A stretch of 64,000 nucleotides of DNA from Candidatus Limnocylindria bacterium (GTDB lineage Bacteria > Chloroflexota > Limnocylindria > P2-11E). Positions 9,208 through 64,000 of this stretch are shown in pieces (position 1 is the stretch's first letter; each line of letters starts with the position of its first letter). The stretch is taken from assembly GCA_035699805.1 (NCBI GenBank), contig DASSPF010000133.1:9659-73658 (forward strand). The letters run 5' to 3'. The translations under genes and the position numbers were made by a program. Under the pieces are notes generated by a model. It was given only the letters and a program-made list of their open reading frames with translations, ran no database searches and had not been told where the DNA came from.

Positions 9208-9641
9208 GTCTTTGATGTCTCCTCGATGAGCCAGCGTAGGGCGACCTCGTAGCCGACGACGCCCATGCCGATCACTTGATACGCGGTGACGTCCTTCAGG
9301 TAGCTATGGTGCCGGAACTGCTCGCGCTTCGTCACATCGCTGATGTGGACCTCGACGACCGGGAACGCGCACGCGGCCACGGCGTCGCGCAGGACGATCG
9401 AGGTGTGCGCCAGACCGCCGGGATTGATGATGGCACCATCCGAGCGCGCGTGCGCCTGAAGGAAGTCGATGAGCGCTCCTTCGTGATTCGACTGATAGGC
9501 CTCGAGCTCTGCGCCCGCCTCCCGCGCGATGCGGCGGCACCGCTCCTCGACCTCCGCCAGCGTCGTGGTCCCGTAGATCGCCGGCTCGCGCGTCCCCAGC
9601 GTGTTCAGGTTCGGTCCATTCACCAGGAGATACCGCCTCAC
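9204..9641 (-). CDS. aroQ: 3-dehydroquinate dehydratase, type II
   Basis: 145 aa (LLVNGPNLNTLGTREPAIYG ... INPGGLAHTS). GTG start with a GGAGGG Shine-Dalgarno sequence. Confidence 0.85.
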   Translation of the reverse strand: MRRYLLVNGPNLNTLGTREPAIYGTTTLAEVEERCRRIAREAGAELEAYQSNHEGALIDFLQAHARSDGAIINPGGLAHTSIVLRDAVAACAFPVVEVHISDVTKREQFRHHSYLKDVTAYQVIGMGVVGYEVALRWLIEETSKT

Positions 9642-11224: not shown

Positions 11225-11226
11225 GG

Positions 11227-13202: not shown

Positions 13203-14374
13203 CAGCGGTTCCCGTACTTCACACGGTTCGCCTCGTGCTCCTCGAGCGTCTTGGCGAAGACGTGCTGCCCCGTGCCGTCGCTCTTCGCGACGAAGAAGAG
13301 ATAGTCGTGCTCGGCCGGCTTCGCCGCGCCCTCCAGCGCCGCCTGCCCCGGATTGCAGATCGGGGTCGGCGGGAGGCCCGCGTTCCGGTAGGTGTTGTAC
13401 GGGGAATCGAGCTTGAGATCCTCGAGCGAGAGCTCACGCCAGTCACCGAGCGCGTACTGGATCGTCGGGTCGGCGTCGAGCTTCATGCCGATCCGCAGGC
13501 GGTTGGCGTACACCCCGGCGATCGCGGCGCTCTCGGAACGGTCGCGCGCTTCGCGCTCGACGATCGACGCGAGCTTCACCAGGTCGTACACCGTCGTGTT
13601 CCGCTGCGCGGCCGCGCTGCGGAGCGCGGGGCCAGAGCGCAGCTCGAACTGCGCGAGCAGCACGTCGACGATCTGCGCCGCGGTCGTCTCCGGCCGCAGG
13701 AAGTACGTGTCCGGGAAGAGGAAGCCCTCGAGGGACGTCTTCGCACCCAGGCCCGCGAGGATGCCGTTCTTGCGCTCGCCGACCACCGCGGCGCTGATGA
13801 ACGAGTCGCTCGAGATCTTGGGGAACGCCTTCTGGACCGCTGCCGCGATCTCCGTGAGCCGCCAGCCCTCGATGAGCCGGAGCACCACCTGATCGCCCGG
13901 CGCCTTCTCGAAGAGTCGGGCCAGCTGGCGTGGGGTGAGGCCGGGGGACACCTGGTAGGTGCCGGACTGGAGGGCGCTCTCCTTCCCGTTCTCGTAGAGC
14001 ACGAACACGAATGCCAGCGCCGAGCGCAGGACGCCCTCCGCGACCAGACGCTCGGCGATCTCACCAGCGGTCTCGCCCCGCGCGATGACGAACGGTCGCG
14101 TCTCGCCGCGCACGTCCTTCGCAAGATCGACCTCGCCGCTCACGCGGCCGGCCACGATCGAGCGGACGAAGTCCTGGCGAAGGAGCGTGTGGTGCTCGGT
14201 CACATAGGCGATGACCGCCTCCTCGGCGAGGGGCCGCGCGATGGCCACCGCCGCCACGGCGGCGATCGCGACGGCGATGAGGAAGACGAGTGGGCCCGAC
14301 GACGACCGCGGCCGCGGCGGCCGGGCGCGCGATGAGACCCGCGGCTGGGGACCGCGCGGCGCGGGACTGCTCAT
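13202..14374 (-). CDS. mltG: Endolytic murein transglycosylase MltG (YceG family)
   Basis: N-terminal TM helix followed by a YceG-like domain (RLRIGMKLDADPTIQYALG, LDSPYNTYRNAGLPPTPICNPG). In the conserved position after ruvX. Confidence 0.8.
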   Translation of the reverse strand: MSSPAPRGPQPRVSSRARPPRPRSSSGPLVFLIAVAIAAVAAVAIARPLAEEAVIAYVTEHHTLLRQDFVRSIVAGRVSGEVDLAKDVRGETRPFVIARGETAGEIAERLVAEGVLRSALAFVFVLYENGKESALQSGTYQVSPGLTPRQLARLFEKAPGDQVVLRLIEGWRLTEIAAAVQKAFPKISSDSFISAAVVGERKNGILAGLGAKTSLEGFLFPDTYFLRPETTAAQIVDVLLAQFELRSGPALRSAAAQRNTTVYDLVKLASIVEREARDRSESAAIAGVYANRLRIGMKLDADPTIQYALGDWRELSLEDLKLDSPYNTYRNAGLPPTPICNPGQAALEGAAKPAEHDYLFFVAKSDGTGQHVFAKTLEEHEANRVKYGNR

Positions 14375-14759: not shown

Positions 14760-16253
14760 TCAGGGCGAGGCCGCGGCGGGGGCGTCGCTCTCGATCTGGA
14801 TCCGCGAGTCGAGCAGCGGCAGGCGTGGCCACCAGCCTGGCCACGTGCTGACGCGCACCAGGCGCAGCCCGCGGCCCGAGACGATCTGCTCCACCTCCTC
14901 GAACGGGCGGCCGGCGAGCGCGGCGCGGATCGCCGCCGCATCGAGGCGGCGGAACTGCGAGGCGCGCGCGCGGACGCGCCAGTGCACGCCATCATCCTCG
15001 ACCGTCGGGGCGCCCACGATGTCGACGACCGCGCCGCGCGCGTCGATGTCATGCCCGGTGTCGGCCTCCTGCTGCAGCCGCGCGATGGCCGTCGTGCGCG
15101 GCTCGGTCGACGGGACGCTGTACCCGGTGGCCGTCCCCGTCGCGACCAGATCGAAGCTGGTCTCACCCACCTTCAGCTCCTTACCCACGACCTCGGCGGC
15201 AGCGGTGAGTCCGGTCCGCTTCACGACCACGCCGTAGATCGTCTGTCCGGCCGGCGCGGTCCGCTTCCAGACCTCGACCTGCGCGTCCGCCTGCGTGCGC
15301 AGCTCACCGTCGGCACGCGACGCCGCGAGCTCGTAGTCCGCCAGCTGCACGATCGGGATCTTCTTGGAGTCGCCGCCGCTGGTGGGCTCGGGATTCTCGA
15401 CGCTGTACTGGCTCGGGTTGGGGCTGACCACGATGCGCCGGGCTCCCACGTTGCCCGACGGGCCTGGCGCCACGGCCTCGATCGGGATGTCGACGCGCCC
15501 GGCGGTGATGCTGGGCGGGAAGATGACGAACGTCGTCCGCGGCAGCGTCTTGTCCTCGGTCGTCTGGAACGCGATGTTGTCCGACGTCTTCACGATGGTG
15601 CCGCGGGGGATGCGGATGTCCGAGGTGGTCAGGTTGGTGAAGCGCTCCACGCCCTTCGCCTTCGTCTCCTCCAGGCGCGAACCGGTCGCGGTGCCGGTGA
15701 ACCGCGCCGTGATGGCCGACGGCCCCTGCGTCGTCGCGTCGATATCACCGCTCGGGCCGGCACGGAGGTCGTACTCGCGCGGACCCAGCGGCTGCGAGAT
15801 CGGCGCCACCACCACGGTCGCGGTGGGTGCGAGCACGGCGAAGAGCACCGCGGCCGCGGCCAGGAGCGCCAGGAACGCCGCGCCCACGCGCACCGGCGAG
15901 GTCCGGCGTGGCTCGGCGGCCACGATCGCCGCGCGGCGGACCGGCCCGAGCGGCTCGGTGGCGTCGAGCTCGTGCCGCTCGAGCGCGGACACGCTCGCGA
16001 AGGCCGGCATGTGCACCGACGTCGCGAGCGATCGGGCGCGCGCTTCCGGCGTGACGAGCGCGACCCGCCTGGCGCCCGCCGCGCGCCGCATGACCTCGAG
16101 GAAGATCGGGCTGCGCAGGACCGGCGCACCCGCCGCGACCGCGAGCACCAGCTCGTCGTCGGCCGGCGCGGCTTGGATGCGATCGATGGCGTCCAGGACG
16201 GTCGCCCGCGCGCCGAGGTCGATCACCGTGCGTCCGCCGATGCGCGCGCTCAC
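14760..16253 (-). CDS. Hypothetical bitopic membrane protein: cytoplasmic domain of about 120 aa, one TM, and a large Thr/Pro/Gly-rich extracytoplasmic beta-rich domain
   Basis: 497 aa. Hydrophobic helix RVGAAFLALLAAAAVLFAVLAP. Coding-like composition throughout, with no recognisable catalytic motif. It is translationally coupled to ruvX downstream and to the PilM-like gene upstream. Confidence 0.6.
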   Translation of the reverse strand: MSARIGGRTVIDLGARATVLDAIDRIQAAPADDELVLAVAAGAPVLRSPIFLEVMRRAAGARRVALVTPEARARSLATSVHMPAFASVSALERHELDATEPLGPVRRAAIVAAEPRRTSPVRVGAAFLALLAAAAVLFAVLAPTATVVVAPISQPLGPREYDLRAGPSGDIDATTQGPSAITARFTGTATGSRLEETKAKGVERFTNLTTSDIRIPRGTIVKTSDNIAFQTTEDKTLPRTTFVIFPPSITAGRVDIPIEAVAPGPSGNVGARRIVVSPNPSQYSVENPEPTSGGDSKKIPIVQLADYELAASRADGELRTQADAQVEVWKRTAPAGQTIYGVVVKRTGLTAAAEVVGKELKVGETSFDLVATGTATGYSVPSTEPRTTAIARLQQEADTGHDIDARGAVVDIVGAPTVEDDGVHWRVRARASQFRRLDAAAIRAALAGRPFEEVEQIVSGRGLRLVRVSTWPGWWPRLPLLDSRIQIESDAPAAASP

Positions 16254-48184: not shown

Positions 48185-48514
48185 TCATGTCCCGCGCAGC
48201 CGCTCGCGCGCCTCCCGCATCTCGCGATCGAACGCTGTCTCGACCGCCGGCTCGCTCGCCGTGCTCTCGGCCCGCTCCCCCGCGGTGCCGCCCGCGGGTG
48301 CGGCCGACTCGCCGGTCACCGCCGGCGCCACCGCGGGAGCCTCCAGGTACTTGTCGGCGTTCAGGAACTCCTCCCGCAGCTCATCGGACGTGCGCCGCAG
48401 ATCGCCCACCACGCGGCCGACATCGCGCGCGACCTTCGGCAGACGCTCTGGCCCAAGGACCAGGAGTGCGAGGAAGAGGACGAAGAGGAGCTCCTCGGCG
48501 CCGACGCCCAGCAT
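48185..48514 (-). CDS. tatA: Twin-arginine translocase TatA/TatB-family subunit
   Basis: 109 aa (MLGVGAEELLFVLFLALLVLGPERLPKVARDVGRVVGDLRR). TM plus amphipathic helix and an acidic tail. The start overlaps the pyrF stop. Confidence 0.7.
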   Translation of the reverse strand: MLGVGAEELLFVLFLALLVLGPERLPKVARDVGRVVGDLRRTSDELREEFLNADKYLEAPAVAPAVTGESAAPAGGTAGERAESTASEPAVETAFDREMREARERLRGT

Positions 48515-49338
48515 CAGCGGCGCTCCAGCACGGTGGCGCGCGCCGCGTTGGCCTCGTCGCGGAGTGCCCGTGCCGCTTCGGCGGCGGCCCGCCCGAAGTC
48601 GTCGGCGCGTGAGGCGTACAGCACCGAGCGCGACGCCGACGGCAGCACGCCTCCGCCGTCAGCGTCGAGCGCCGCCCGCAGCGCGGCGGCGAGATCGCCG
48701 CCCTGCGCACCGACACCCGGCATGAGGAACAGCCGATCCGGCGCGAGCTCGCGCAGGCGTCGCGCTTCCTCCGGGTACGTCGCGCCGACCACGAAGCCGC
48801 AGCGGCTCGCGGGGAACGCGCTCACCGCGGCCATGACGACCCGCTCGTACAGCGGCCGACCGTCCACGATGAGGTCCTGCAGGTCGCGCGCGCCAGGGTT
48901 GCTCGTGCGGGCCAGGACGAGCGCGTAGCGGTCGTCACCGGTGAATGGGGTGATCGAGTCCATGCCCAGGTACGGCGCGACCGTCACGGCATCGGCACGG
49001 AAGGGTCCGAAGAGCGCGTCGGCGTAGGCCGCGGCGGTGTTCGGGACATCACCGCGCTTGGCGTCAAGGATCACCGGGATGTCGTCGGGGATCGCCTGGA
49101 GCGTCAGCCCGAGCACGTCGAACGCCGCGCTGCCGTAGCGCTCGAAGAACGCGAGATTCGGCTTGTAACAGCAGGCATATTCCGACGTCGCGTGGATGAT
49201 CCGCCGCAGGAAGCGCAGCGCCGCCTGGGGACCACGACCCAGCGATGTGGGAATGAGATCGGGTTCGGGATCCAGACCAACGCAGATGATGCTGTCCCGA
49301 GCCCGCGACGATGACGCGAGCTTCTCGAGGAACGTCAT
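48514..49338 (-). CDS. pyrF: Orotidine-5'-phosphate decarboxylase (long, type-2 form)
   Basis: 274 aa (ICVGLDP, KPNLAFFE, DAKRGD). Confidence 0.8.
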   Translation of the reverse strand: MTFLEKLASSSRARDSIICVGLDPEPDLIPTSLGRGPQAALRFLRRIIHATSEYACCYKPNLAFFERYGSAAFDVLGLTLQAIPDDIPVILDAKRGDVPNTAAAYADALFGPFRADAVTVAPYLGMDSITPFTGDDRYALVLARTSNPGARDLQDLIVDGRPLYERVVMAAVSAFPASRCGFVVGATYPEEARRLRELAPDRLFLMPGVGAQGGDLAAALRAALDADGGGVLPSASRSVLYASRADDFGRAAAEAARALRDEANAARATVLERR

Positions 49339-50488: not shown

Positions 50489-51337
50489 ATGCAGATGGCA
50501 TCCATCCTCAGCGTCGAGAATCTCACCAAGGTCTACCCCGGCGGTACGCGTGCGCTCGACGGCATCTCACTGGACATCGGACGCGGGGAATTCGTCGTGC
50601 TCATCGGCCTCTCGGGGTCAGGCAAATCCACCTTGCTGCGCTGCCTCAATCGTCTCATCGAGCCAACGAGCGGCCGGGTGGTCTTCGACGGCATTGACGT
50701 CACGGCGGCGCGTGGTGCGGAGCTCCGCCGTATCCGCAGGCGAATGGGCATGATCTTCCAGCAGTTCAATCTCGTGAAGCGCGCATCGGTCTTCCAGAAC
50801 GCACTGGCCGGGCGCCTGGGCTACCGGTCCACCTGGCGGACCATCGCGAGCCGTCCCGACCGAGAGGACGTCGCGCTGGCGTTCGAGAATCTCGGACGGG
50901 TGGGGATCCTGGAAAAGGCGTACTCGCGTGCCGATGCCCTGTCGGGCGGCCAGCAGCAACGGGTGGGGATCGCTCGCGCGCTCATGCAGCGACCCGACGT
51001 CATGCTCGCCGACGAGCCGGTCGCGAGCCTCGATCCCGCGACGAGCCACTCGGTCATGAAGTATCTCGAGGAGATCAACAAGAAGGACGGCATCACGGTC
51101 ATCTGCGCGCTCCATTTCCTGTCGCTCGCCCGACGGTATGGCACGCGCGTGATCGCGCTGAAGGACGGCCGCGTCGCATTCGATGGCCAGCCGGCCGCCA
51201 TCGACGAGCGCCGCTTCAAGGAGATCTACGGTGAGGACGCCGTGGAGGTCGAGATCGGTCCGGGCAAGACCCGCACCGAGCTGCTGTCAGAGGCCGAGGC
51301 GCTGATCAAGGCGCCCGACCTCACCCCGGACCGCTGA
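50489..51337 (+). CDS. phnC: Phosphonate ABC transporter ATP-binding protein
   Basis: Walker A GLSGSGKST, signature LSGGQQQRV, Walker B LADEP. Confidence 0.8.
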   Translation: MQMASILSVENLTKVYPGGTRALDGISLDIGRGEFVVLIGLSGSGKSTLLRCLNRLIEPTSGRVVFDGIDVTAARGAELRRIRRRMGMIFQQFNLVKRASVFQNALAGRLGYRSTWRTIASRPDREDVALAFENLGRVGILEKAYSRADALSGGQQQRVGIARALMQRPDVMLADEPVASLDPATSHSVMKYLEEINKKDGITVICALHFLSLARRYGTRVIALKDGRVAFDGQPAAIDERRFKEIYGEDAVEVEIGPGKTRTELLSEAEALIKAPDLTPDR

Positions 51338-52230
51338 TGGCGGACTACTTCCGGTCCAGGGGTCTGCCCGTGCCACCCGAGCTCGAGCGCACGCCGCTCA
51401 CCGATTGGCGTCGCTATCTGGCGCTCCTTGCGACAGCCGCCGTCCTCTGGGTCGGGCTTCAGGTGACCGCCATCGACACGAGCCGCGCGAATCCCTCGTA
51501 CGTCGGCCAGATCCTCGGCCAGCTCATGACGCCCGACTGGGAGATCCTCTTCCCGCCGGTCGACATCTTTTGCGATCTGCCCGCCGACCAGCGCGACCAA
51601 TGTGCGCGGGGCAGCTTCTGGGACGGTGGGATCGGTCTCATGATCATCACGATCTTCATGGCGATCATCGCCACGGCGCTCGCGGTCGTCGTGGCGGTAC
51701 CGCTGTCGTTCCTCGGCGCGCGGAATGTCATGACCGGAAATCCCATCACGGCCGGCATCTATGCGGTCGTCCGCGTGTTCTTCACGGTCGTCCGTTCGAT
51801 CGACATCCTCATCCTCGCCGTGATCGCGGTGGTCCTCTTCAGCACCGGCAACGCCGCGGGCGTCTTCGCGATCGCGTTCCACAACGTCGGCGTCATGGGC
51901 AAGCTGTACTCCGAGGCTGTCGAGGGGATCGACCCGGGCCCGATCGAGGCGATCACCGCCACCGGCGCGAATCGCTTCCAGGTGATCTGGACGGCCGTCC
52001 TACCGCAGATCGTCAACCCGTACATCTCGCTCACCATCTACCGCCTCGACACCAACGTCCGCCTGGCGCCTGTGCTCGGCCTGGCGGGTGCGGGCGGCAT
52101 CGGCGTGCTGCTGTTCCAGAACATCAATCTCTTCCGCTACCACGCGACCGGCGCGCTCATCTTCCTCATCGTGCTCACGGTCGTCGTCATGGACTTCGCC
52201 TCGGCGCAGGTCCGCAAGCGTCTCGCCTAG
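51337..52230 (+). CDS. phnE: Phosphonate ABC transporter permease
   Basis: 297 aa, about 6 TM. Start overlaps the phnC stop. Clear PhnE-like permease. Confidence 0.75.
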   Translation: MADYFRSRGLPVPPELERTPLTDWRRYLALLATAAVLWVGLQVTAIDTSRANPSYVGQILGQLMTPDWEILFPPVDIFCDLPADQRDQCARGSFWDGGIGLMIITIFMAIIATALAVVVAVPLSFLGARNVMTGNPITAGIYAVVRVFFTVVRSIDILILAVIAVVLFSTGNAAGVFAIAFHNVGVMGKLYSEAVEGIDPGPIEAITATGANRFQVIWTAVLPQIVNPYISLTIYRLDTNVRLAPVLGLAGAGGIGVLLFQNINLFRYHATGALIFLIVLTVVVMDFASAQVRKRLA

Positions 52231-52237
52231 CGACGGC

Positions 52238-53290
52238 TCACCTCGACCACGAGAGCCGGCTCTGGCCGTCGACGCCCTCGCCCCGCGTGAGCTTCACCGC
52301 CGCCTTCACCGGACCACCGGTGAGCGCTGCGCCGAGCTCCATCGCGTAGAGGTCGATCGCCGCGCCGGCCTCGCGCAGGAACGCGATGGAGCCGCCATCC
52401 GGCGAGAACACGCCGTTCCAGCTCTTCCCATCGCTGGTGAGCGCGACGTCGCGCCCGGTCGACACCTCCACCGCATGCACGTCGTTGCCACCGGCGGGAT
52501 GCCGCAGCGTGTACACGAGCCAGCGACCATCAGGCGAGTACGACGCGCGGTACGGCTCCCCCTCCGCGCCGATCTTCTGCGGTGTGGCGATCCGCCCGTC
52601 GATCGGCACGATGAGCAGCCGCGGCACGCCCTGCGTGTACGAGGTGACGACGAGGGTCCGGCCATCGGGCGACCACGATGGATCGGCCAGGTTCGAGCCC
52701 GTCGAGAGCTGGCTCACGAGCATCGGGCGCGAGGCTGTGGACCGCATGTCGTAGACCATGAGCTCCGCAGCGCCGTCGCCACCGTCCACGATGACGGCGA
52801 AGCGCGTCCCGTCGGGCGAGATCGCCGGGCTCTCATGCCAGGCGACCTCGTGGAAGCCGTTCGACGAGCGCGCCACCAGACCGGTCAGCAGGATCGTCTC
52901 GGAGCCGCCCCGCGTGCTCAGGCTGACGACATCGCTGTAGTGAAGGAGCGCGGGGGTCGTCTGCCCGTCCACCGTGCGCCGCCCATCGATCGTCTCGCGG
53001 CGCGAGAAGAGCAGCGTCCGTCCGTCCATCGACAGGCTCGGCGACAGGCTGCGGCTCTCCTGCGTCGCCGCACCGTACTTCCCCTCGCGCAGGAGATAGA
53101 TGTCGCCGCGGAGCGCGAAGGCGATGGTGCCGGCGATCCGCGGCGCATCCACCGGCGCGCTCGGCCGCGCCGGCGTCGGCGAGATCGTGCCGCCCGGGAG
53201 GAGCGGTGCGACCGTCCGGCCGCCGAGCACGCCGTACCCGACCAGCACCACCAGCGCCACAGCGCCGAAGAGCGCCTCGCGCCGTCTCAT
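52238..53290 (-). CDS. Membrane-anchored TolB-like WD40/PD40 beta-propeller protein
   Basis: Start trimmed to MRRREALFGAVALVVLVGYG (TM). Repeated PD40 motifs (SPDG x4). The Arg-rich upstream part of the 609-aa ORF overlaps the kinase gene in another frame and is rejected. Confidence 0.65.
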   Translation of the reverse strand: MRRREALFGAVALVVLVGYGVLGGRTVAPLLPGGTISPTPARPSAPVDAPRIAGTIAFALRGDIYLLREGKYGAATQESRSLSPSLSMDGRTLLFSRRETIDGRRTVDGQTTPALLHYSDVVSLSTRGGSETILLTGLVARSSNGFHEVAWHESPAISPDGTRFAVIVDGGDGAAELMVYDMRSTASRPMLVSQLSTGSNLADPSWSPDGRTLVVTSYTQGVPRLLIVPIDGRIATPQKIGAEGEPYRASYSPDGRWLVYTLRHPAGGNDVHAVEVSTGRDVALTSDGKSWNGVFSPDGGSIAFLREAGAAIDLYAMELGAALTGGPVKAAVKLTRGEGVDGQSRLSWSR

Positions 53291-53946
53291 GTGCCGGCCC
53301 GCACGGCCGCCGCGATCCGTGCCACTTGGTCCGCGACATCTGGTCCATTGCGGATCTCCAGATGTCCTCCCGGCGGTGGCTCGAGATCTCGCGCGCGCAT
53401 CCGCTCGTACACGCGGACATCGGCGTCGGAGTGATCGCCGTCGGCGCGCTCGCGCGCACGCGCGGCGAGGCGCTCGCGCGTCGCCGCATCGTCGGCGGTC
53501 ACGAGCACGTGATGGAGCGCCGCTCCGCGTGCGCGCGCCACCGCCTCCGCCGGGGCGCGGTTGCGCGCCACCAGATGCGTCGCGTCGAGAACGACGATGT
53601 GGCCCTCGCCGAGCAGCTCGTCGACGAGCGCCTCGGCGATGCCGAACACCGCCGCGTTCTCGTCGTCCGCATACGACGCCGCGATGAACAGCCGGCTGCG
53701 GAGGTGATCCGTCGCGACGTGTGCGGCCCCGAGCTCGCGCGCGAGGAGCGCCGCGCAGTGCGACTTGCCGACGCCCGGCAGGCCCATGAGCATCACGAGC
53801 GCCGGCCGACCCGCGGCGGCGCGCGGGACCCCGATCTCCTCGCGCAGCTGCGCGGTGAGCGCACGACGGTGCGCCGCGAGCGCGCGTGTCTGCGCGCGGG
53901 TCGCCGCGTCCGAGAGCCGCGCCGTCCGCGCGCGCGCCCGGGTCAT
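53287..53946 (-). CDS. P-loop kinase, AAA_33/zeta-toxin-like family
   Basis: Walker A MGLPGVGKSH and Walker B-like VVLDAT. 219 aa. ATGA overlaps with murE upstream and the TolB-like gene downstream. Confidence 0.6.
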   Translation of the reverse strand: MTRARARTARLSDAATRAQTRALAAHRRALTAQLREEIGVPRAAAGRPALVMLMGLPGVGKSHCAALLARELGAAHVATDHLRSRLFIAASYADDENAAVFGIAEALVDELLGEGHIVVLDATHLVARNRAPAEAVARARGAALHHVLVTADDAATRERLAARARERADGDHSDADVRVYERMRARDLEPPPGGHLEIRNGPDVADQVARIAAAVRAGT

Positions 53947-55442
53947 GCGCCGTGACCCAGCTGCGCGAGCGCCGCCCGCGCGGTGGCGGCCTCGTCCCAG
54001 GGAAGCTTCTCCTCGCCGACGATGATCGAGCCCTCATGGCCCTTCCCGGCGAGGAGGACCGTGTCACCAGGACCCGCGCGCGAGATCGCCTCGCGGATCG
54101 CCGCGGTGCGATCGTCGATGACGAGGTAGTCGACGCCCGCGCGCTTGCCCTGGGCGACCGCCCCGGCCTCGATCTCGGCGAGGATCGTCGCGGGATCCTC
54201 GAGCCGCGGGTCCTCCTGCGTGATGACGAAGAGATCGGCGTAGCGTGACGCGACCTCCGCGAGGCGCGGCCGCTTGGCGCGGTCGCGCTCCCCCGCGCTG
54301 CCGAACACCGCGATGAGCCGGCCCTTCGTCAACGGGCGCAGCAGCGCGAGGACCTTGTCCAGCGACTCGGGCGTGTGCGCGTAGTCCACCACCACCGTGA
54401 ACGGCTGCCCGCTGTCGACGCGCTCCATCCGTCCGCGGACGGGCGTGGCCCGCTCCAGCGCGGTCTTCGCGACCGCGAGCGTGAGGCCCGCGGCGACGCC
54501 GGTCGCGGCGGCGGCGAGCGCGTTGTGCACGTTGAAGCGGCCGACGAGCGGCAGCGCGAGCTCCACCTGCTCGCCCTCACGCGCGATCCGGACACGCGAC
54601 CCGCTCGCGTCCGCCGCGAGGATCGTCCCCTGGACGTCGGCGTGCGCGTCGATGCCGTACGTCAGCACGCGCGCGTCACCGGAGCGGTCGGCGAGATAGC
54701 GCCAGTGCGGATCGTCGGCGTTCAGCACGGCCGTCTTGGGCACGCCCTTGTCCGCGCTCGTCGCGAGCTGCGCGAACAGGAGGGCCTTCGCATCGAGGTA
54801 CGCCTGGAGCGTGCCGTGGAAATCGAGATGCTCCGGGCTCAGATTGGTGAACACCGCGATGTCGATGTCGCATCCGCGTACCTTCCGCAGCGCGAGCGCG
54901 TGCGACGTCGCCTCGAGCACGCCCCAGGTGCCGCCCGCGACGAGCAGCTCGGCGAAGAACTCCTGGATCTCGACGGCCTCCTGCGTGCTCTGGCGCGTCT
55001 CGTTCGCCCAGGCCGAGCCCGCCATCTTGAAGTCGACCGTGGTCGCGAAGCCGGTGCGCTCCTTCCCCGCCTCGAGGACATCCGACACCAGATGCACGGT
55101 CGTGGTCTTCCCGTCGGTGCCCGTGACGCCGACGACCTTCAGCTTGCGGGTCGGGTGATCGAAGAGCTCCGCGGCGAGGTCCGCGAGCGCCGCGCGTGTA
55201 TCGGGCACGATGGCGCGCGGTGCGGCCGTGCGGACCTTCTTCTCCACGACCACCGCGATCGCCCCGGCGGCGACGGCCTCCTTCACGTAGTCGTGGCCAT
55301 CGCGATGGAAGCCGCTGATGGCCACGAACACCGCGCCTGGCCCGGCCTTCCGCGAGTCGTAGGCGAGGCTGCGCACGTCCAGGTCGGCCGCACCCGGCGG
55401 TACGGGTATGCCGCAGGCCACGAAGAGCGGACCCAGCTTCAC
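53943..55442 (-). CDS. murE: UDP-N-acetylmuramoyl-L-alanyl-D-glutamate--diamino-acid ligase MurE
   Basis: Mur ligase motifs (GVTGTDGKTTT, DNADD-like NADDPHW, YAHTPESL). The start is approximate. The coding-like signal begins near VKLGPLFVACG. Confidence 0.8.
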   Translation of the reverse strand: MKLGPLFVACGIPVPPGAADLDVRSLAYDSRKAGPGAVFVAISGFHRDGHDYVKEAVAAGAIAVVVEKKVRTAAPRAIVPDTRAALADLAAELFDHPTRKLKVVGVTGTDGKTTTVHLVSDVLEAGKERTGFATTVDFKMAGSAWANETRQSTQEAVEIQEFFAELLVAGGTWGVLEATSHALALRKVRGCDIDIAVFTNLSPEHLDFHGTLQAYLDAKALLFAQLATSADKGVPKTAVLNADDPHWRYLADRSGDARVLTYGIDAHADVQGTILAADASGSRVRIAREGEQVELALPLVGRFNVHNALAAAATGVAAGLTLAVAKTALERATPVRGRMERVDSGQPFTVVVDYAHTPESLDKVLALLRPLTKGRLIAVFGSAGERDRAKRPRLAEVASRYADLFVITQEDPRLEDPATILAEIEAGAVAQGKRAGVDYLVIDDRTAAIREAISRAGPGDTVLLAGKGHEGSIIVGEEKLPWDEAATARAALAQLGHGA

Positions 55443-56461
55443 CGCCGCACGCGACCCAGGATGCGCAGTGCGCCCGTGTATGCGGGCTCGGCCACGAGGT
55501 ACGCCCGGTACAGCGCGCCGGCGGGCACGGTGTCGTGCGCACCGACCCAGCGCCGGACGACGCCGCCGAAGCCCTTCTTGAACAGGTACGGGCCGTACAT
55601 CGGGTCGTCCTTTCGCTCGGTGTCCTGCGGGATGCCGCCCATGTCGAAGACGCGACGACCCGCCCGCTTCGCTTCGATGATGCACTCCCAGAGCAGCGCG
55701 TACGCCGCGTAGCTCTTTCGCCCGGCCTCGTTCGTCGCCCCGGTCTGGTACAGCGCGCGGTCACCGCAGCGCCACACCATCGCCCCCGCGACCGGCGCGC
55801 CGTCCACGTAGGCGAGACGGAGCGACGCCAGGCCCGCGTCGATGAGCGTCGACCACGTGGCGCGGTAGTACTCCCAGGTGCGTGTGATGAAGCCGGCGCG
55901 GCCCCCGGTCGTCGCGTACAGCTCGTAGAACGAGCGCAGCGCGGCCTCATCCGAGGCGGCGCGGATCTCGACGCCGCGCTTGGGTCCCTGGCGCACGCTC
56001 CAGCGCGTGTCCTTCTCGAGCGACGCGAAGAGCGCGTCCTCCTCCGGCATCAGGTCCAGCACGAGCGTCGCGAGCACCGGCTGGACGTCCTGCGGCGATC
56101 GGCGGAAGCCGGCCGCGGCGAGCGCGGCCCCGGCGTCCTCGGACGCGAGCTCGGGGTCGACCTTCAGGAACACCGCCCGCCGCTCGCGCGCCAGCTCGGC
56201 GAGCCGCCGGAGCGCGCGCTCCAGTCCCGCGCCGTCGCCGGGCGCGACGATCGGGCCGCGCGGGACGTAGCCGATCGGCCGTCCGGGGAGCGCGTCGCGC
56301 CACAGGACCAGCGCGAGCGGCAGGGGATCGCCGACGCGCACGTACTCGGCGCGCCAGCCCTGCGCCGCTCGGATCCTCGCCCACGCGCTCGACTGGAGGG
56401 TGTGGCCGCCCGGTGAGCGCGCGGCGGCATCGTCCCAGCCGGCGGGTGCCGCCTCGCTCAT
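55439..56461 (-). CDS. FemAB-family peptidoglycan interpeptide-bridge aminoacyltransferase, paralog 1
   Basis: Start trimmed to MSEAAPAGWDD. The FemX-like fold pattern is shared with the next gene (LQSSAWARI.../GYVPRGPIV.../FKKGFGG). Confidence 0.7.
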   Translation of the reverse strand: MSEAAPAGWDDAAARSPGGHTLQSSAWARIRAAQGWRAEYVRVGDPLPLALVLWRDALPGRPIGYVPRGPIVAPGDGAGLERALRRLAELARERRAVFLKVDPELASEDAGAALAAAGFRRSPQDVQPVLATLVLDLMPEEDALFASLEKDTRWSVRQGPKRGVEIRAASDEAALRSFYELYATTGGRAGFITRTWEYYRATWSTLIDAGLASLRLAYVDGAPVAGAMVWRCGDRALYQTGATNEAGRKSYAAYALLWECIIEAKRAGRRVFDMGGIPQDTERKDDPMYGPYLFKKGFGGVVRRWVGAHDTVPAGALYRAYLVAEPAYTGALRILGRVRR

Positions 56462-57543
56462 GCCGCCGACCGCGCGAGGCGCCGCCGCGCTGCGAGCTGC
56501 CACAGCGGATACAGCAGCGGGCGCACCGGGATCTCGAGCGCCCCCACCCACTCGGTCACCTCGCCGCCGAAGCCGAGCTTGAAGTTCTCCACGCCCGCGA
56601 GCGGATCGGCCGCGCCCTCGGCGAGGCCCCACATGTCGTACCGGCGCGCCCCAAGTGCGCGCATGCGCTGCATCGCGCGCCACTTCAGGAGATAGAACGG
56701 CCGCGCCTCCGCGTGCGCGCCGCTCCATCCGCCATAGAGCTCCCAGGCGCGATCGGCCAGACGCACGACGAGCAGCGCGCCGGCGTCCTCGTCGCCCACC
56801 CGCGCCATGAGCAGGTGCGCGCGCTCACCGAACGCCGCGAGCAGCCGCTCGAAGTACTCACGGGAGTGCAGGGCGAACCGGTCGCGCGCGCCGACCGCCG
56901 CGAGCACGCGAAGGAACCGCCCGAGGTCCGTCGTCTCCTCGGTGACCACGCCGAGCCGCTCGGCCTTGTGGATGTACTGCCGCGTCTTCTTGCGCATCGC
57001 CGCGAGCAGGTCGTCGGGCTCGCGCGTGAGGTCCATGAGCAGGGTGCGCCGCGGCTGGACGTAGACCGGCGAGCGACGGATGCCGGCGCGGGCGAGCTCC
57101 GCGGCCACCTCGGGGCCCGCCGGCTGCTCGGGGTCGCAGAGCAGGCTCGCGCATCGCTTGCGCGCGAGGGCGTCGCGGACCGCCACGATGGCGGCGGGGA
57201 GATGTGCCGGGTCGACGAGCGGACCGCGTGGCGCGTACGCGACCGTGATGCCCAGCGGGAGTCGCTTCGTCAGCACCTGCGCGACCCCGTGACGGACGCT
57301 GCCCCGCGAGTCCTCCAGCACGTAGCGCTCGGCACGCCAGCCCGTCGCGGCCTTGAGCTCGGCCCAGGCCGCCGACTGGAGGATGTGCGGCCGCCCGGTC
57401 GCGACGACGAGCTCGTCCCACCCCTGGGCTTCGGCGTAGGTCGCCGGGCTCGCCTTCAATCTGTCGCGCTCGCCTCGGCCCGCCTGCGGCGGCCTGCGGC
57501 TCGCCGCGTCGCTCCGCTCATCTGGTCTCGCTCCTCGCGGCAA
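56458..57543 (-). CDS. FemAB-family peptidoglycan interpeptide-bridge aminoacyltransferase, paralog 2
   Basis: ILQSAAWAELKAATGWRAE, VAYAPRGPLV, FKLGFGG. An alternative TTG start lies at about 57459. Confidence 0.7.
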   Translation of the reverse strand: MPRGARPDERSDAASRRPPQAGRGERDRLKASPATYAEAQGWDELVVATGRPHILQSAAWAELKAATGWRAERYVLEDSRGSVRHGVAQVLTKRLPLGITVAYAPRGPLVDPAHLPAAIVAVRDALARKRCASLLCDPEQPAGPEVAAELARAGIRRSPVYVQPRRTLLMDLTREPDDLLAAMRKKTRQYIHKAERLGVVTEETTDLGRFLRVLAAVGARDRFALHSREYFERLLAAFGERAHLLMARVGDEDAGALLVVRLADRAWELYGGWSGAHAEARPFYLLKWRAMQRMRALGARRYDMWGLAEGAADPLAGVENFKLGFGGEVTEWVGALEIPVRPLLYPLWQLAARRRLARSAA

Positions 57544-57594
57544 AGCCGCTCGTCACTCGTCTTGGGTCCGGGTGCCTCTCCGGCTTTCGTGACC

Positions 57595-59760
<2,166 letters not shown>

Positions 59761-59800
59761 TGGTCTTCCTGTTCCCTCACACGCTTGCGGTTTGGGCAGC

Positions 59801-59824
59801 AAAAAGGGCCCTTTTCCCGGGCCC
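59801..59824 (-). terminator. Intrinsic terminator (GGGCCC-loop-GGGCCC followed by T5 on the minus strand) upstream of topA
   Basis: Seen in sequence. It would terminate the trpS-manC transcript. Confidence 0.5.
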
Positions 59825-59913
59825 CCACGTCCATAACTCTACCCGGAGCGGCAACACGCTCTAGTTAGATATAGAGCGACCCGGCCTTTCCGGCGGCCAA
59901 GCGGGGCCTGGTC

Positions 59914-59950
59914 GGGCGAAAAATGGCCTGTTTTACGGCCGTTTTCGCCC
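59914..59950. other. Long imperfect hairpin (15/14-nt arms) 8 nt downstream of the manC stop
   Basis: GGGCGAAAAATGGCC-tgttttac-GGCCGTTTTCGCCC. Not followed by a clean U-tract. Confidence 0.4.
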
Positions 59951-59957
59951 GTCGGGA

Positions 59958-61034
59958 CTAGAGCAGGTCCTCGCGCTCCTCCCGGCGGAGGCGGTCGACC
60001 ACGTCCTTCACCTGCTCGGAGCGGTCGGCCGAGGCGACGAGCAGGGCGTCGGGCGTGTCGATGACGATGAGGCCCTCGACCCCCACCAGCGCGACCGTCT
60101 TCCCCGGCGCCCAGGCGTAGTTGCCGTCGGCGTCGACCGCGACATGACCGTCGGAGGACCAGTTGTCGCCCGGGCGGGCGACGATCGACGCGAGACGGGC
60201 CCAGCTCCCCACGTCGTGCCAGCCGATGTCTGCCGGGACGACCGCCACGTTCGCGGCCTTCTCGAACACGCCGTAATCGATGGTGGTGCGGTCGGTCTCC
60301 TCCCAGACCTCGGCGAGGACTGACTCGTACCTCGGCGACCCGATCGCCTCGGCGAGCGCGTCGATCGCCTTCGCCGTGCCCGGGAGATGCGCGCGGTACG
60401 CGGCGATGATGTCGGCGACCCGCCAGACGAACATCCCCGCGTTCCAGAAGTGACCGCCCGCGGCGATCATCCGCTGGGCCGCCTCGCGCTTGGGCTTCTC
60501 GATGAAGCGCTTCACCGTCCGCACCGGAACAGGCGTCCGCAGCGACGCGATGACCTCACCGGCCTCGATGTAGCCGAACCCGGTGTCCGGCCGCTCGGGC
60601 TCGATGCCGAGCGTCACGAGATTCCCGGCCTCCGCGGCGGCCGTCGCCGCGAGGAGCACGTCGCGGAACTTCGGGCGCTTGTCCACCACGTGGTCCGACG
60701 GCAAGACCGCGACGACCGCCTCCGGGTCGAAGACGTGGAGCGCGGCCATCGCCAGCCCGATCGCCGCCGCGTTGCCGCGCGGGTACGGCTCGATCACGAC
60801 GTGGTCGGCGCGCAGCTCGGGGAGCTGCTCGTGGATGAGCGCGCGGTGCTCCGGCGGGGCCACCGCGAAGATGCGCTCGCTCGGGATGATCTCGGCGATC
60901 CGGTCGACCGTGTCCTGCAGCATGCTGCGCTCTCCGAGCAGGCCGAGGAACTGCTTGGGGCGCGCTCGCCGCGACAGCGGCCAGAGGCGCGTGCCCGCTC
61001 CGCCGGAGAGGATGAGCGCGTAGAGCCGGGGCAC
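59958..61034 (-). CDS. manC: Mannose-1-phosphate guanylyltransferase (GDP-mannose pyrophosphorylase)
   Basis: Start trimmed to a GTG whose G is shared with the trpS TAG. N-terminus VPRLYALILSGGAGTRLWPLS. The upstream Arg-rich 196 codons of the 553-aa ORF are rejected. Confidence 0.8.
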   Translation of the reverse strand: MPRLYALILSGGAGTRLWPLSRRARPKQFLGLLGERSMLQDTVDRIAEIIPSERIFAVAPPEHRALIHEQLPELRADHVVIEPYPRGNAAAIGLAMAALHVFDPEAVVAVLPSDHVVDKRPKFRDVLLAATAAAEAGNLVTLGIEPERPDTGFGYIEAGEVIASLRTPVPVRTVKRFIEKPKREAAQRMIAAGGHFWNAGMFVWRVADIIAAYRAHLPGTAKAIDALAEAIGSPRYESVLAEVWEETDRTTIDYGVFEKAANVAVVPADIGWHDVGSWARLASIVARPGDNWSSDGHVAVDADGNYAWAPGKTVALVGVEGLIVIDTPDALLVASADRSEQVKDVVDRLRREEREDLL

Positions 61035-62077
61035 TACAGGCCGAAGTAGTCGAGCTTCATCGCGTGACGAACATCGTGGAGGGTCTGCGCCGCCTCGTGG
61101 CGCGCGCGCTCGCTGCCGTTCGCGATGATCTCGTTCACGAGCTTCGGGTCCGACGCGTACCTCGCGCGACGCTCGCGGATGGGTCCGAGGAAGGCCTCGA
61201 GGGCCGCATACAGCTTCTGCTTCACCTCGACGTCGCCCACCTTCCCCTTCCGGTACCGCTCCTTCAGGTCGGCGACCTCGGCCGTATCCGTGTTGAACAT
61301 GTCGTGGTAGACGAACACCGGGTTGCCCTCGACCGTCCCCGGGTCGGTCGCGCGGAGCCGCTTGGGGTCGGTGTACATGCCCATGACCTTGCGCCTGACC
61401 GTCGCGGGATCGTCGGCGAGGTCGATGGCGTTCCCGAGGCTCTTCCCCGCCTTGCTCGCGCCGTCGGTGCCGGGCAGGAGCGTATCGCTCGGGATGAGCG
61501 CGTCGGGCACTGGGAAGACCGGCGTGAAGAGCTCGTTGAATCGCCGCGCGATCTCGCGGGTCATCTCGATGTGTGACTCCTGATCGCGGCCGACGGGGAC
61601 GAGGTCGCCCTTCACGCAAAGGATGTCCGCGGCCTGAAGGATGGGATAGCCGAGGAGCCCGTACGAGGGCTGTGTGATCTCGTGGTCGCGCATCTGTTCC
61701 TTCAGCGTCGGGATGCGCTGCGCGCGCGACACGGTGACGAGCATGGAGAAGTACAGGTGAAGCTCGGTCGTCTGCGGCACCAGGGACTGCAGGTAGATCG
61801 TCACCTTCTCCGGATCGATGCCCGCGGCGAGGTTGTCGAGCACGACGTCCCGCACGTTCTGCCCGATCTCGTCGAGCCGCTCGAGGCGCGTCGTGAGCAT
61901 GTGGTAGTCCGCGACGAGCAGGAAGGTGTCGTAGGTGTCCTGCAGCTTCACGCGGTTCTGGAGCGTGCCCACGTAGTGCCCCAGGTGAAGCCGGCCCGTC
62001 GGGCGGTCACCCGTCAGGATGCGCTTGCGCGTCGGCACGGTGCCGGGCGCGCGCGTCGTTGGCGCGAGGCTGGTCAT
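61034..62077 (-). CDS. trpS: Tryptophan--tRNA ligase
   Basis: 347 aa (KRILTGDRPTGRLHLGHYVG HIGH motif, KMSKS-like KAGKSLGN). Confidence 0.85.
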   Translation of the reverse strand: MTSLAPTTRAPGTVPTRKRILTGDRPTGRLHLGHYVGTLQNRVKLQDTYDTFLLVADYHMLTTRLERLDEIGQNVRDVVLDNLAAGIDPEKVTIYLQSLVPQTTELHLYFSMLVTVSRAQRIPTLKEQMRDHEITQPSYGLLGYPILQAADILCVKGDLVPVGRDQESHIEMTREIARRFNELFTPVFPVPDALIPSDTLLPGTDGASKAGKSLGNAIDLADDPATVRRKVMGMYTDPKRLRATDPGTVEGNPVFVYHDMFNTDTAEVADLKERYRKGKVGDVEVKQKLYAALEAFLGPIRERRARYASDPKLVNEIIANGSERARHEAAQTLHDVRHAMKLDYFGL

Positions 62078-62766
62078 GGGACCCTCGATGCTAGCGTGCG
62101 GGCGAGCTCGTCCGCGACGAGACGCCCCACCTCATCGCGCTTTCCCACGAAGAAGTGATCGACGCCGCTCACCGTGGCGATGCGCGCGCGAGGCAGCGCG
62201 ATCGCGAGCTCGGCGGCCGTACCGAACTGGTCGTGCTCGGCGGCGACGATGTACGTCCCGTCCGGCACCGGCGGGAGCTCATGTGGCGCGAGGCTCACCG
62301 AGCGGAGCGGCACCCCGACCAGCGCCACCGCGTCGGCGCGACCGCCCTCGGCCATCCAGCGCAGCGTCATGAGCGCCCCGAACGAGTACGCGGTCACCCC
62401 GACGGGTGCTCCCGGCAGGAGCGCGCGGGCGTGCGCGACCGCCTCGCCGACATCGCGCCATTCCTCTCGGCCCCCGGTCCACTCCCCCACGCTCGCGCCC
62501 ACGCTGCGGAAGTTGAAGCGCAGCGCGTAGCAGCCTGCCGCGGCGACGGCGCGCGCCAGTGCGGCGACGAGCGGGTTGCGCATCGTCCCGCCATGCGTGG
62601 GAAGCGGGTGCGCCACCACGACGATCGCCCGCGGCTCGACGTCGGGGATGCGCAGGGTCGCCTCGAGGCGGTCGGCGATACGGAGGGCCTCTTCACGCAC
62701 GCGGCCCAGTGTCGCAGCCGGAACCGGATGGCGGCGGACGCTGTAATACCGGTGTCGTGCGACCAT
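62074..62766 (-). CDS. Alpha/beta hydrolase (short, YqiA/esterase-like)
   Basis: Start trimmed to MVARHRYYS. HPLPTHGGT and a YSFGA nucleophile elbow. The upstream Arg/Trp-rich extension is rejected. Confidence 0.55.
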   Translation of the reverse strand: MVARHRYYSVRRHPVPAATLGRVREEALRIADRLEATLRIPDVEPRAIVVVAHPLPTHGGTMRNPLVAALARAVAAAGCYALRFNFRSVGASVGEWTGGREEWRDVGEAVAHARALLPGAPVGVTAYSFGALMTLRWMAEGGRADAVALVGVPLRSVSLAPHELPPVPDGTYIVAAEHDQFGTAAELAIALPRARIATVSGVDHFFVGKRDEVGRLVADELARTLASRVP

Positions 62767-64000
62767 GGGCCGTCCTCTTCGCCGTGTCGGCCGTCCTGGC
62801 GGCAGCCTGCCAATCCACCGGTCCGCTCTCGTCCGCATCCGCCACGCCCGGCCCGACCGGTGGGCAGGCCAGCGCGGCGGCACCGACCCCCACCCCCAGC
62901 CCCACCGCGACGCCGTCACCGACCCTCGAGCCCCAGGTGGCGACCTGCAACATGCAGCTCACCACGAGCTTCGTGCTGGCCAACGACCTGACCTGCCCGG
63001 GCGACGCGTTCGTCATCCACACGAGCGGGATCGTTCTCGATCTGAACGGCCACACCATCACCGGACCCGGCATGGGGCCGCAGACCTGGCCGAATCCGCA
63101 GCTCGACAGCGTGGGCGTCCGCGCCGGCGGCCACACCGACGTGACCGTGCGCAACGGCAAGATCGTCGGCTTCTCCACCGGCATCTACTTCATCGACATG
63201 CAGCGTTCCACGATCGAGAACGTCGTGAGCGCGCAGAGCCGCTACGGGTTCTACCTCCACGCCTCCACCGGGCTCACCGTCACCGGATCGACCGTGATGG
63301 CGAACATCTATGGCCTGCATCTCCAGGCATCCAGCGGCAACGTCGTGCGCGGCAACAAGCTCATCCGCCAGACGTACAACAGCCCCGGCGGCTACGGGAT
63401 CTACCTCTACCGCAGCAACGACAACCGCGTCTTCGAGAACGACATCGACAACAACGTGAACTGGGGCATCTGGTTCAGCGAGGCGCGCGGCAACCTCATC
63501 TTCCACAACAACGTGCAAGGGAACAACCCGCCGGTGAGCGACAACCAGCCGGCCGCGAACCAGTGGTTCGATCCCGTGACGAAGCAGGGCAACTACTGGG
63601 CCGACTACAAGGGCCGCGATGCCGACGGCGATCTCATCGGCGACGCGCCGTATCCGATCCTCGGCCCCGGTGGCGCGGTCGACGCGTATCCCTTCGTGGA
63701 GCGTGACGGATGGAAGCGCAAGACGCGCCCCACCGTCGATCACTACCAGCCGGCGGCGGCGCGGCCGCCGCGCGAGGTCCGCGTCGTCGTGGTGACCGGC
63801 GCCGGTGTGCAGGTGGCCGAGCCGCAAAGCGGCGCGCTGCGCTCACTGGACGTGGCGGCGACGCAGGTGGCGCTCGGCACCGATGGCCGCACGCTCCTGG
63901 CGCTCGATGGGCGGGCGCTCACGGTGCTCGATCTGGGCGGCGCGGGCACGCGGCACACCCGCACCGTGCAGATCGACTCGGGGATCGTCGCCGCGAACCG
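62757..64000 (+). CDS. Lipoprotein with right-handed parallel beta-helix (NosD/PbH1-like) repeats, partial (runs off the window end)
   Basis: Not in the ORF track because it has no stop. The frame +1 relative to the listed 62765 ORF translates as (M)RPWAVLFAVSAVLAAACQS (lipobox), then a Pro/Thr linker, then repeated N-x-I/V beta-helix rungs and NYWADYKGRDADGDLIGDAPYPI. Confidence 0.65.
   Translation, partial: MRPWAVLFAVSAVLAAACQSTGPLSSASATPGPTGGQASAAAPTPTPSPTATPSPTLEPQVATCNMQLTTSFVLANDLTCPGDAFVIHTSGIVLDLNGHTITGPGMGPQTWPNPQLDSVGVRAGGHTDVTVRNGKIVGFSTGIYFIDMQRSTIENVVSAQSRYGFYLHASTGLTVTGSTVMANIYGLHLQASSGNVVRGNKLIRQTYNSPGGYGIYLYRSNDNRVFENDIDNNVNWGIWFSEARGNLIFHNNVQGNNPPVSDNQPAANQWFDPVTKQGNYWADYKGRDADGDLIGDAPYPILGPGGAVDAYPFVERDGWKRKTRPTVDHYQPAAARPPREVRVVVVTGAGVQVAEPQSGALRSLDVAATQVALGTDGRTLLALDGRALTVLDLGGAGTRHTRTVQIDSGIVAAN

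Follow-up and report, generated by a model that had tools for sequence, protein, structure and literature searches.

Individual residues have been assigned roles in two families of enzymes that act on the stem peptide of peptidoglycan. In MurE ligases that use meso-diaminopimelate (meso-DAP), the Asn and the Arg of a DNPR motif bind the distal carboxylate of that amino acid (PMC3829189). In the FemX transferases, Lys305 is the catalytic residue and works with Phe304, and Lys36, Arg211 and Tyr215 belong to the acceptor site (PMC8280954, PMC12945691; these residues are numbered, here and below, as in the Weissella viridescens enzyme, FemX_Wv). The FemX of Staphylococcus aureus also has a coiled coil, formed by residues 235-297 (PMC8280954). 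As to the wall itself, the Chloroflexota species Sphaerobacter thermophilus has A3-beta murein with L-ornithine (L-Orn) and an interpeptide bridge (PMC3035262). Here we compare with these systems a block of five genes that code for two Fem transferases (Fem1 and Fem2), a MurE ligase, a small P-loop kinase and a PD40 beta-propeller protein, and that lie in a 64-kb stretch of DNA with a GC content of 70% (the window) from Candidatus Limnocylindria bacterium (Chloroflexota). An earlier reading of this DNA, the original prediction, took the block for a cell-wall cluster with a kinase that might modify peptidoglycan precursors. We consider it probable that these genes represent, in Limnocylindria, a module for branching the stem peptide; the kinase and the PD40 protein that go with it most likely are not enzymes dedicated to wall precursors.

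The five open reading frames (ORFs), all on the minus strand, proved to be real and to belong to the families first proposed for them, as judged by matches to Pfam and NCBIfam models. They are given below in the direction of transcription, together with the neighboring gene upstream:

56458-57459, minus strand, Fem1, 333 residues from the TTG at 57459 (Pfam FemAB, E 9.4e-39)
55439-56461, minus strand, Fem2, 340 residues (Pfam FemAB, E 1.1e-35)
53943-55442, minus strand, MurE, GTG start (TIGR01085, 493 bits; motif EDPR)
53287-53946, minus strand, small P-loop kinase of the AAA_33 family, 219 residues (AAA_33, E 1.4e-24; Zeta_toxin, E 7.5e-7)
52238-53290, minus strand, membrane-anchored PD40 (TolB-type) beta-propeller protein, 350 residues (PD40, E 2.7e-25)
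57595-59802, minus strand, topA (DNA topoisomerase I), directly upstream of Fem1; context and not a wall gene

Two FemX-type transferases and a MurE with an EDPR motif

Fem1 and Fem2, recognized from the start as paralogous FemAB-family transferases upstream of murE, are packed tightly with that gene and score 133.8 and 123.8 bits against the Pfam FemAB model over both GNAT subdomains (PF02388, cut-off 24). The best match of both proteins in the PDB is the FemX of S. aureus (6SNR; E 4.5e-20 for Fem1 and 7.6e-27 for Fem2), followed by that of W. viridescens (1.6e-11 and 1.2e-15), and FemA (1LRZ) is matched marginally by both (E ~4e-4). The coiled coil is missing, since the alignments skip residues ~224-304 of the S. 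aureus FemX in the case of Fem1 and residues 235-290 in the case of Fem2. Neither this coiled-coil arm nor a closest similarity to FemA or FemB, the marks of the FemA/FemB subtype, was found in Fem1 or Fem2.

The conservation of active-site residues was counted over 57 Fem1 and 61 Fem2 orthologs. The equivalents of Phe304 and Lys305 are invariant (57/57 and 61/61), that of Tyr215 is kept in 56 of the 57 Fem1 and in all 61 Fem2 sequences, and a DPE motif, which aligns with residues 108-110 of FemX, is present in 56-57 of 57 and 60-61 of 61, respectively. The Lys36 equivalent is basic in both paralogs, being Arg in 59 and Lys in 2 of the 61 Fem2 proteins. The acceptor-binding Arg211, however, divides the pair: its equivalent is Arg in 61/61 Fem2 and His in 51/57 Fem1. 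We predict that both proteins are short FemX-type aminoacyl-tRNA-dependent transferases. The Arg211/His split fits, without proving, a division of labor in which the unbranched precursor would be the substrate of Fem2 and the product with one branch that of Fem1. Because the paralogs are ~34% identical to each other and the median identity of orthologs across the class is 65% (Fem1) and 66% (Fem2), the duplication is old and both copies have been maintained.

The block had been drawn to position 57543 at its Fem1 end. The ORF is real, but 57543 is only the TTG of its longest form, which reaches that far because the spacer between topA and Fem1 stays open in the Fem1 frame. Fem1 orthologs begin with M[R/K]A.PA[T/S], which in the window corresponds to the TTG at 57459, and the start was placed there because of this agreement; Fem1 most likely spans 56458-57459 and is predicted to have 333 residues. 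The spacer itself (57460-57594) is 135 nucleotides long, and the commonest spacing in relatives is 3-10 nucleotides (20 of the 45 loci in which it could be measured).

MurE scores 493.1 bits against TIGR01085 (cut-off 257.3), and the Mur_ligase, Mur_ligase_M and Mur_ligase_C domains are all present. Its specificity motif had been proposed as a guide to the amino acid at position 3 of the stem peptide. At the place of DNPR the window MurE has EDPR, as do 65/65 orthologs, and the motif of meso-DAP enzymes is consequently absent. In PDB alignments EDPR is paired with DNPR of a DAP-type MurE-MurF fusion (8F5D), with DNPA of S. aureus and with DDPR of Thermotoga maritima. The change from Asn to Asp argues against classical meso-DAP and would suit a diamino acid of the Lys or Orn type, the kind of residue that Fem enzymes acylate. 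No description of the EDPR form was found in the literature searched.

Predicted wall chemistry

In the pathway that we propose, MurE would add at position 3 a diamino acid with a free side-chain amine. Classical meso-DAP is improbable as this residue; L-lysine (L-Lys) or L-Orn is more likely and would agree with the walls of cultured Chloroflexota. The first step probably belongs to Fem2 and the second to Fem1, each enzyme moving an amino acid from an aminoacyl-tRNA onto the side-chain amine, and the acceptor may be soluble UDP-MurNAc-peptide, as it is for the short FemX of W. viridescens. A peptidoglycan of the A3 type, with indirect cross-links, would result. Co-transcription is also probable for the two downstream genes, those of the kinase and of the anchored PD40 propeller. 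The suggestion that two Fem ligases beside MurE make a two-step or two-residue branch on position 3 is reasonable in this light, both paralogs keeping the equivalents of Lys305/Phe304, the DPE motif and Tyr215.

A branched and indirectly cross-linked wall is the best reading of the genes, and for Chloroflexota it is ordinary and expected biology; the module of murE with two Fem genes, and the branch predicted from it, are well founded and extend through the class. The gene string nevertheless provides a concrete prediction of wall chemistry, namely a stem peptide branched in two Fem steps on the residue supplied by a MurE whose EDPR motif is class-specific, for a class that is abundant in soil and lakes and of which we know of no cultured member. 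Furthermore, Fem1 and Fem2 offer a natural pair of short paralogs, of which only Fem2 has Arg211, for studies of how first-step and second-step transferases discriminate between acceptors.

Conservation and packing of the block

Synteny was followed in 68 loci found by kinase homology, 64 from GTDB species-representative genomes and 4 from contigs of the P0129 clade. Three of the four P0129 contigs are near-identical, so that the clade stands for two independent places. Most of the 64 loci are labelled Limnocylindria or Chloroflexota; four carry unrelated taxon labels (L002, L017, L037 and L042, from metagenome-assembled genomes of Acidiferrales, Bathyarchaeia, Udaeobacter and Saccharimonadales) and are most likely binning errors in public genomes. 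The order trpS-(manC)-topA-Fem1-Fem2-MurE-kinase-PD40, then convergent phnE-phnC-phnD, was found in every locus with a sufficiently long contig. The block order is also kept in the four P0129 contigs, where the kinase is 44-46% identical to that of the window, and topA lies directly upstream of Fem1 in 54/54 loci that reach that far. The possibility, raised with the original prediction, that the block is not conserved can thus be set aside: it is kept class-wide across the 68 loci.

The conserved unit exceeds the five genes and takes in the unrelated dprA, trpS, manC and topA. Since it is longer than the block and contains unrelated genes, synteny inside the class cannot separate functional linkage from inheritance. 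Our searches of the literature found nothing specific on this cluster or on the wall chemistry of Limnocylindria.

In the window each of the four junctions within the block is a start/stop overlap of 4 bp. Three of them, with the sequence ATGA (56458-56461, 53943-53946 and 53287-53290), stand exactly as first described, but the supposed abutment at 55439-55442 is really a fourth overlap, GTGA, where the GTG that starts murE and the TGA that ends Fem2 have two bases in common. Over the conserved loci the Fem1-Fem2 junction is at -4 in 43/61 and at -1 in 9/61, the Fem2-MurE junction at -4 in 51/64, the MurE-kinase junction at -4 in 60/68 and at -1 in 7/68, and the kinase-PD40 junction at -4, -19 or -1 in 61/65. 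With order and overlaps kept across 61-68 loci per junction, the arrangement exceeds chance in this one sense. At the kinase-PD40 junction the nearest PD40 start lies 19 nucleotides inside the kinase gene, instead of forming a 4-bp overlap, in 23 of the 65 loci, which suggests that two alternative PD40 start positions are conserved in the class (L001-L068).

In this genome the overlaps lend no support to a shared function. A 4-bp overlap is also seen at about one in five of the other same-strand junctions of the window, some of them between unrelated genes. The functionally unrelated pyrF and tatA (48185-49338, minus strand) overlap by 1 bp, and overlaps therefore do not imply shared function here. 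Moreover, trpS, manC and topA belong to the same same-strand string, and the whole neighborhood is conserved in the class. Limnocylindria genomes have a mean size of 2.39 Mbp and 68.9% GC (PMC10608941). Inheritance of gene order and the tight packing of a compact genome mainly account for the adjacency and the overlaps, and the case calls for caution, given that compact packing and class-wide synteny alone do not assign function.

The kinase and its family

The kinase, whose database record is labelled "ATP-binding protein", has the features of the AAA_33 kinases: a Pfam match above cut-off, a Walker A motif, an Asp after strand 2, lid arginines and a P-loop kinase fold. In its AlphaFold model (pLDDT 85) a long Arg-rich N-terminal helix (residues 3-38) is placed on a P-loop kinase core. 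Comparison of this fold with known structures gave the following scores:

PSTK, 18.7
Kti12, 17.7
APS kinase, 17.3
gluconokinase-like protein BH3686, 16.6
Pnkp kinase domain, 16.4
Chloroflexus aurantiacus Caur_3907, 16.4
PezT, 12.4 (rank 34, 12% identity)
Zeta, 12.2 (rank 37, 12% identity)

PezT and zeta are no closer to the kinase than dephospho-CoA or shikimate kinases are, a result on which Foldseek and the PDB profile search agree. The statement that zeta toxins are its closest characterized relatives was therefore mistaken, the folds of PSTK, Kti12, APS kinase and Pnkp being closer, and neither a closest relationship to zeta/PezT nor an adjacent antitoxin was found. A single-sequence search of the PDB with the kinase returned marginal adenylate-kinase matches only, and the profile search did slightly better. 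No confident unrelated function, such as those that the original prediction had named as contrary to it, was found. Identity as a shikimate or gluconate kinase was rejected: the NCBIfam gluconokinase model scores 18 bits against a cut-off of 265, and the murE-linked kinase is not the shikimate kinase of the cell because a separate AroK-AroB fusion is present in the window. This fusion of shikimate kinase and 3-dehydroquinate synthase (9641-11386, minus strand) adjoins chorismate synthase. Searches of the kinase, of Fem1 and Fem2 and of the PD40 protein with PADLOC defence models yielded no meaningful match (best E 2e-4).

A library-wide profile search showed a steep drop after Limnocylindria and then a family of ~200-residue proteins with the same motifs, represented by 976 cluster representatives at E <1e-10. 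The window kinase is 37-45% identical to family members without mur linkage and 44% identical to the murE-syntenic P0129 clade, and it looks like the Limnocylindria copy of a Chloroflexota-wide family of small P-loop kinases. The neighborhoods of family members sampled outside the class were the following:

EamA / kinase / SOD
PadR-HAAS-DegV-kinase-M17 peptidase (twice)
PlsY-kinase
kinase overlapping a DAGK_cat/YegS gene
ProC-YggT-kinase-M17 (twice)
DegV-MOSC-kinase, on a contig labelled SAR202

None of these eight contains a mur or fem gene beside the kinase, and SAR202 is a group for which an absence of peptidoglycan synthesis has been reported. An M17 leucyl aminopeptidase gene often follows the genes of this family in other Chloroflexota. 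A peptidoglycan-specific role, raised as a possibility in the original prediction, is thus unsupported, the kinase being equally similar to relatives that have no mur linkage, one of them labelled SAR202. With respect to wall synthesis it is probably a co-transcribed passenger.

Among the other functions that can be considered, the one that survives best, though it is unlikely, makes the kinase lipid-related, with partners such as DegV (a FakB-like fatty-acid-binding protein), PlsY or DAGK-type lipid kinases; it might phosphorylate a fatty acid or a lipid alcohol, and would either have been relocated beside murE or act on the polyprenol carrier. Members of the family lie directly after DegV (L073, L078), near DegV (L079), after PlsY (L074) or overlapping DAGK_cat/YegS (L075), and there are fusions of DegV with the kinase (P0234 at full length; P0392, P0410 and P0303 partial) and of the kinase with DAGK_cat/YegS_C (P0213), though on short contigs an apparent fusion may come from reading through neighboring genes. 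The ProC-YggT-kinase-M17 and EamA/kinase/SOD neighborhoods, on the other hand, have no lipid gene, the folds that come closest belong to kinases of nucleotides, sugars and RNA and not to lipid kinases, and the surroundings of the Limnocylindria copy showed no gene for DegV, PlsY or DAGK. Three fusions known from single examples, to archease (the RtcB cofactor; P0210), orotidine monophosphate (OMP) decarboxylase (P0169) and ornithine cyclodeaminase (P0182), point elsewhere and are possibly read-through gene calls as well. In the window pyrF, the OMP decarboxylase gene, lies 4 kb from the kinase. Whatever the role of the Limnocylindria copy, the DegV/PlsY/DAGK linkage (L073-L079) may mark an uncharacterized lipid or fatty-acid kinase system in Chloroflexota.

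It is quite unlikely that the kinase modifies peptidoglycan precursors, phosphorylating UDP-GlcNAc, UDP-MurNAc-peptide or a lipid-linked precursor in the manner of zeta/PezT. In favor of this role, the kinase gene overlaps the stop of murE with its start (67/68 loci) and the start of the extracytoplasmic propeller gene with its stop, the Pfam Zeta_toxin model matches just above cut-off (29.2 versus 22.3 bits), and the search for a confident alternative came back empty. However, AAA_33 outscores Zeta_toxin by 58 bits, trpS, manC and topA are members of the conserved string too, and the sampled homologs outside the class, including the one labelled SAR202, stand apart from mur and fem genes.

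Action on RNA, as a polynucleotide 5'-OH kinase or as a tRNA or aminoacyl-tRNA kinase of the PSTK/Kti12 type, is improbable too. PSTK, Pnkp and PNKP are among the best PDB profile matches, the top NCBIfam match is bacterial Pnkp, the N-terminal helix is rich in Arg, and one family member is the archease fusion, archease being a cofactor of the RNA ligase RtcB; the D-x-x-R and DAT[N/H]L motifs and the lid arginines also resemble the T4 Pnk sequence. Yet the NCBIfam match (E 3.7e-6) is far below cut-off, the sequence matches in the PDB profile search are all weak (E 6.6e-5 or worse), APS kinase and gluconokinase folds score almost equally, and the motifs are common to the whole P-loop kinase clan. 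The tRNA-binding domain at the C terminus of PSTK and Kti12 is missing from the kinase, and no phosphatase, ligase, Hen1 or RtcB partner occurs in any sampled neighborhood. Finally, because PSTK/Kti12 folds are the closest, the helix is Arg-rich and two aminoacyl-tRNA-dependent Fem transferases are co-encoded, one could picture the kinase as a genuine part of the branching pathway that phosphorylates the aminoacyl-tRNA donor, as PSTK does with Ser-tRNA, or a nucleotide precursor, but this is very improbable and would imply a phosphorylated intermediate or bridge residue that is not known from peptidoglycan synthesis, whose product the anchored propeller would handle outside the membrane.

The PD40 propeller protein

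The description of the last gene of the block as a PD40 beta-propeller with an N-terminal anchor was borne out. The protein consists of an N-terminal hydrophobic anchor, kept in 60/61 orthologs, a Pro/Thr-rich linker and a C-terminal propeller, and it is predicted to be an extracytoplasmic, membrane-tethered propeller. Its C-terminal ~200 residues match only the TolB propeller in the PDB (E 2.5e-15; aligned residues 153-311). It is not a TolB protein by the TIGR02800 model, where it scores 70 bits against a cut-off of 343, and no tolQRA or pal genes were found among the window ORFs scanned. Chloroflexota are regarded as monoderm. An LpqB-like role was considered but not adopted, the match to Gmad1 being slight (E 9e-6 over 66 residues). 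The PD40 gene and the convergent phnE end 7 bp apart (52230-52238), which leaves no room for separate terminators.

Evidence that weighs against a branching module with passenger genes

The reading of the block as a stem-peptide branching module accompanied by a passenger kinase has several observations against it. Where the MurE substrate is concerned, the NCBIfam meso-DAP equivalog NF001126 is above its cut-off (458.7 versus 373) and the L-Lys equivalog is below its own (309.5 versus 536), and EDPR retains the Arg of the motif. Bridges made by Fem enzymes can also occur in walls with LL-DAP or meso-DAP, as in the A3-gamma walls of Streptomyces. Furthermore, the bridge of Sphaerobacter is beta-alanine, which is not borne by tRNA and is not expected from a tRNA-dependent Fem enzyme, and for that reason the Sphaerobacter precedent supports the wall type and not the enzymology.

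As regards the kinase, the survey of family neighborhoods outside the class covered eight cases only. The MurE-kinase overlap is also the best-conserved junction of the block (67/68 at -4 or -1) and is kept even though the kinase diverges to ~45%, so that the kinase may have been selected for co-expression with murE. A promoter and terminator scan of 51800-62400 revealed neither a sigma-70-like site nor a credible coding-strand terminator, and the limits of the operon consequently cannot be set from sequence.

Genomic surroundings

The placement of murE outside a dcw (division and cell wall) context was confirmed within the 64-kb window, where no mur, fts, mraY or pbp gene flanks it and the ORFs scanned include no mur or fts gene beyond murE. 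The block is flanked by topA, manC and trpS on one side and by phnECD, pyrF, tatA and secDF on the other. Other genes of the window are housekeeping genes, among them aminoacyl-tRNA synthetases, relA, recJ, ftsH, secDF, tatA, pyrF, a phosphonate ABC transporter, topA, manC and trpS. A single additional wall-related gene, coding for a homolog of MltG/YceG, lies at 13205-14374. It adjoins a gene (14763-16253, minus strand) for a 497-residue protein with a Baseplate_J-like domain (E 1e-7), and a phage-baseplate-type domain among housekeeping genes is an odd placement. Rfam models at gathering thresholds found no RNA family in 51000-63000.

Comparison with known systems

With Zeta and PezT, which are UDP-GlcNAc 3'-kinases, the kinase has the broad P-loop clan in common, together with the marginal Zeta_toxin match. 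Identity to PSTK, Kti12, APS kinase and Pnkp is 16-22%, and the window kinase differs from them by its 45-residue Arg-rich N-terminal helix, unique to it, and by having no tRNA-binding, phosphatase or other partner domain. The PD40 protein shares the propeller with TolB of the Tol-Pal system, but it has no TolB N-terminal domain and carries a membrane anchor in place of a periplasmic signal.

The MurE of T. maritima (DDPR), deposited as an L/D-lysine ligase (PDB 4BUB), has in common with the window MurE the Asp at the second position of the motif and the Arg. The window MurE differs from this enzyme and from the L-Lys enzyme of S. aureus (DNPA) by a Glu at the first motif residue; it is, like both, a full three-domain protein, but its best hidden Markov model scores are to DAP-type models. 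Sphaerobacter thermophilus belongs to the same phylum, and the gene content of Limnocylindria predicts a branch on the side chain of residue 3.

Fem1 and Fem2 share the double-GNAT FemAB fold with the FemX enzymes of W. viridescens and S. aureus and with MurM of Streptococcus pneumoniae. Identity to the characterized Fem enzymes is low, and the NCBIfam FemX model scores 73-75 bits against a cut-off of 500. In length (333-340 residues) and in the lack of a coiled coil the two proteins match the FemX of W. viridescens, a UDP-MurNAc-pentapeptide:L-alanine transferase that uses the soluble nucleotide precursor. They are set apart from the FemX enzymes of W. viridescens and S. aureus by the His that replaces Arg211 in Fem1, and by the arrangement of the fem genes in one string with murE in Limnocylindria.

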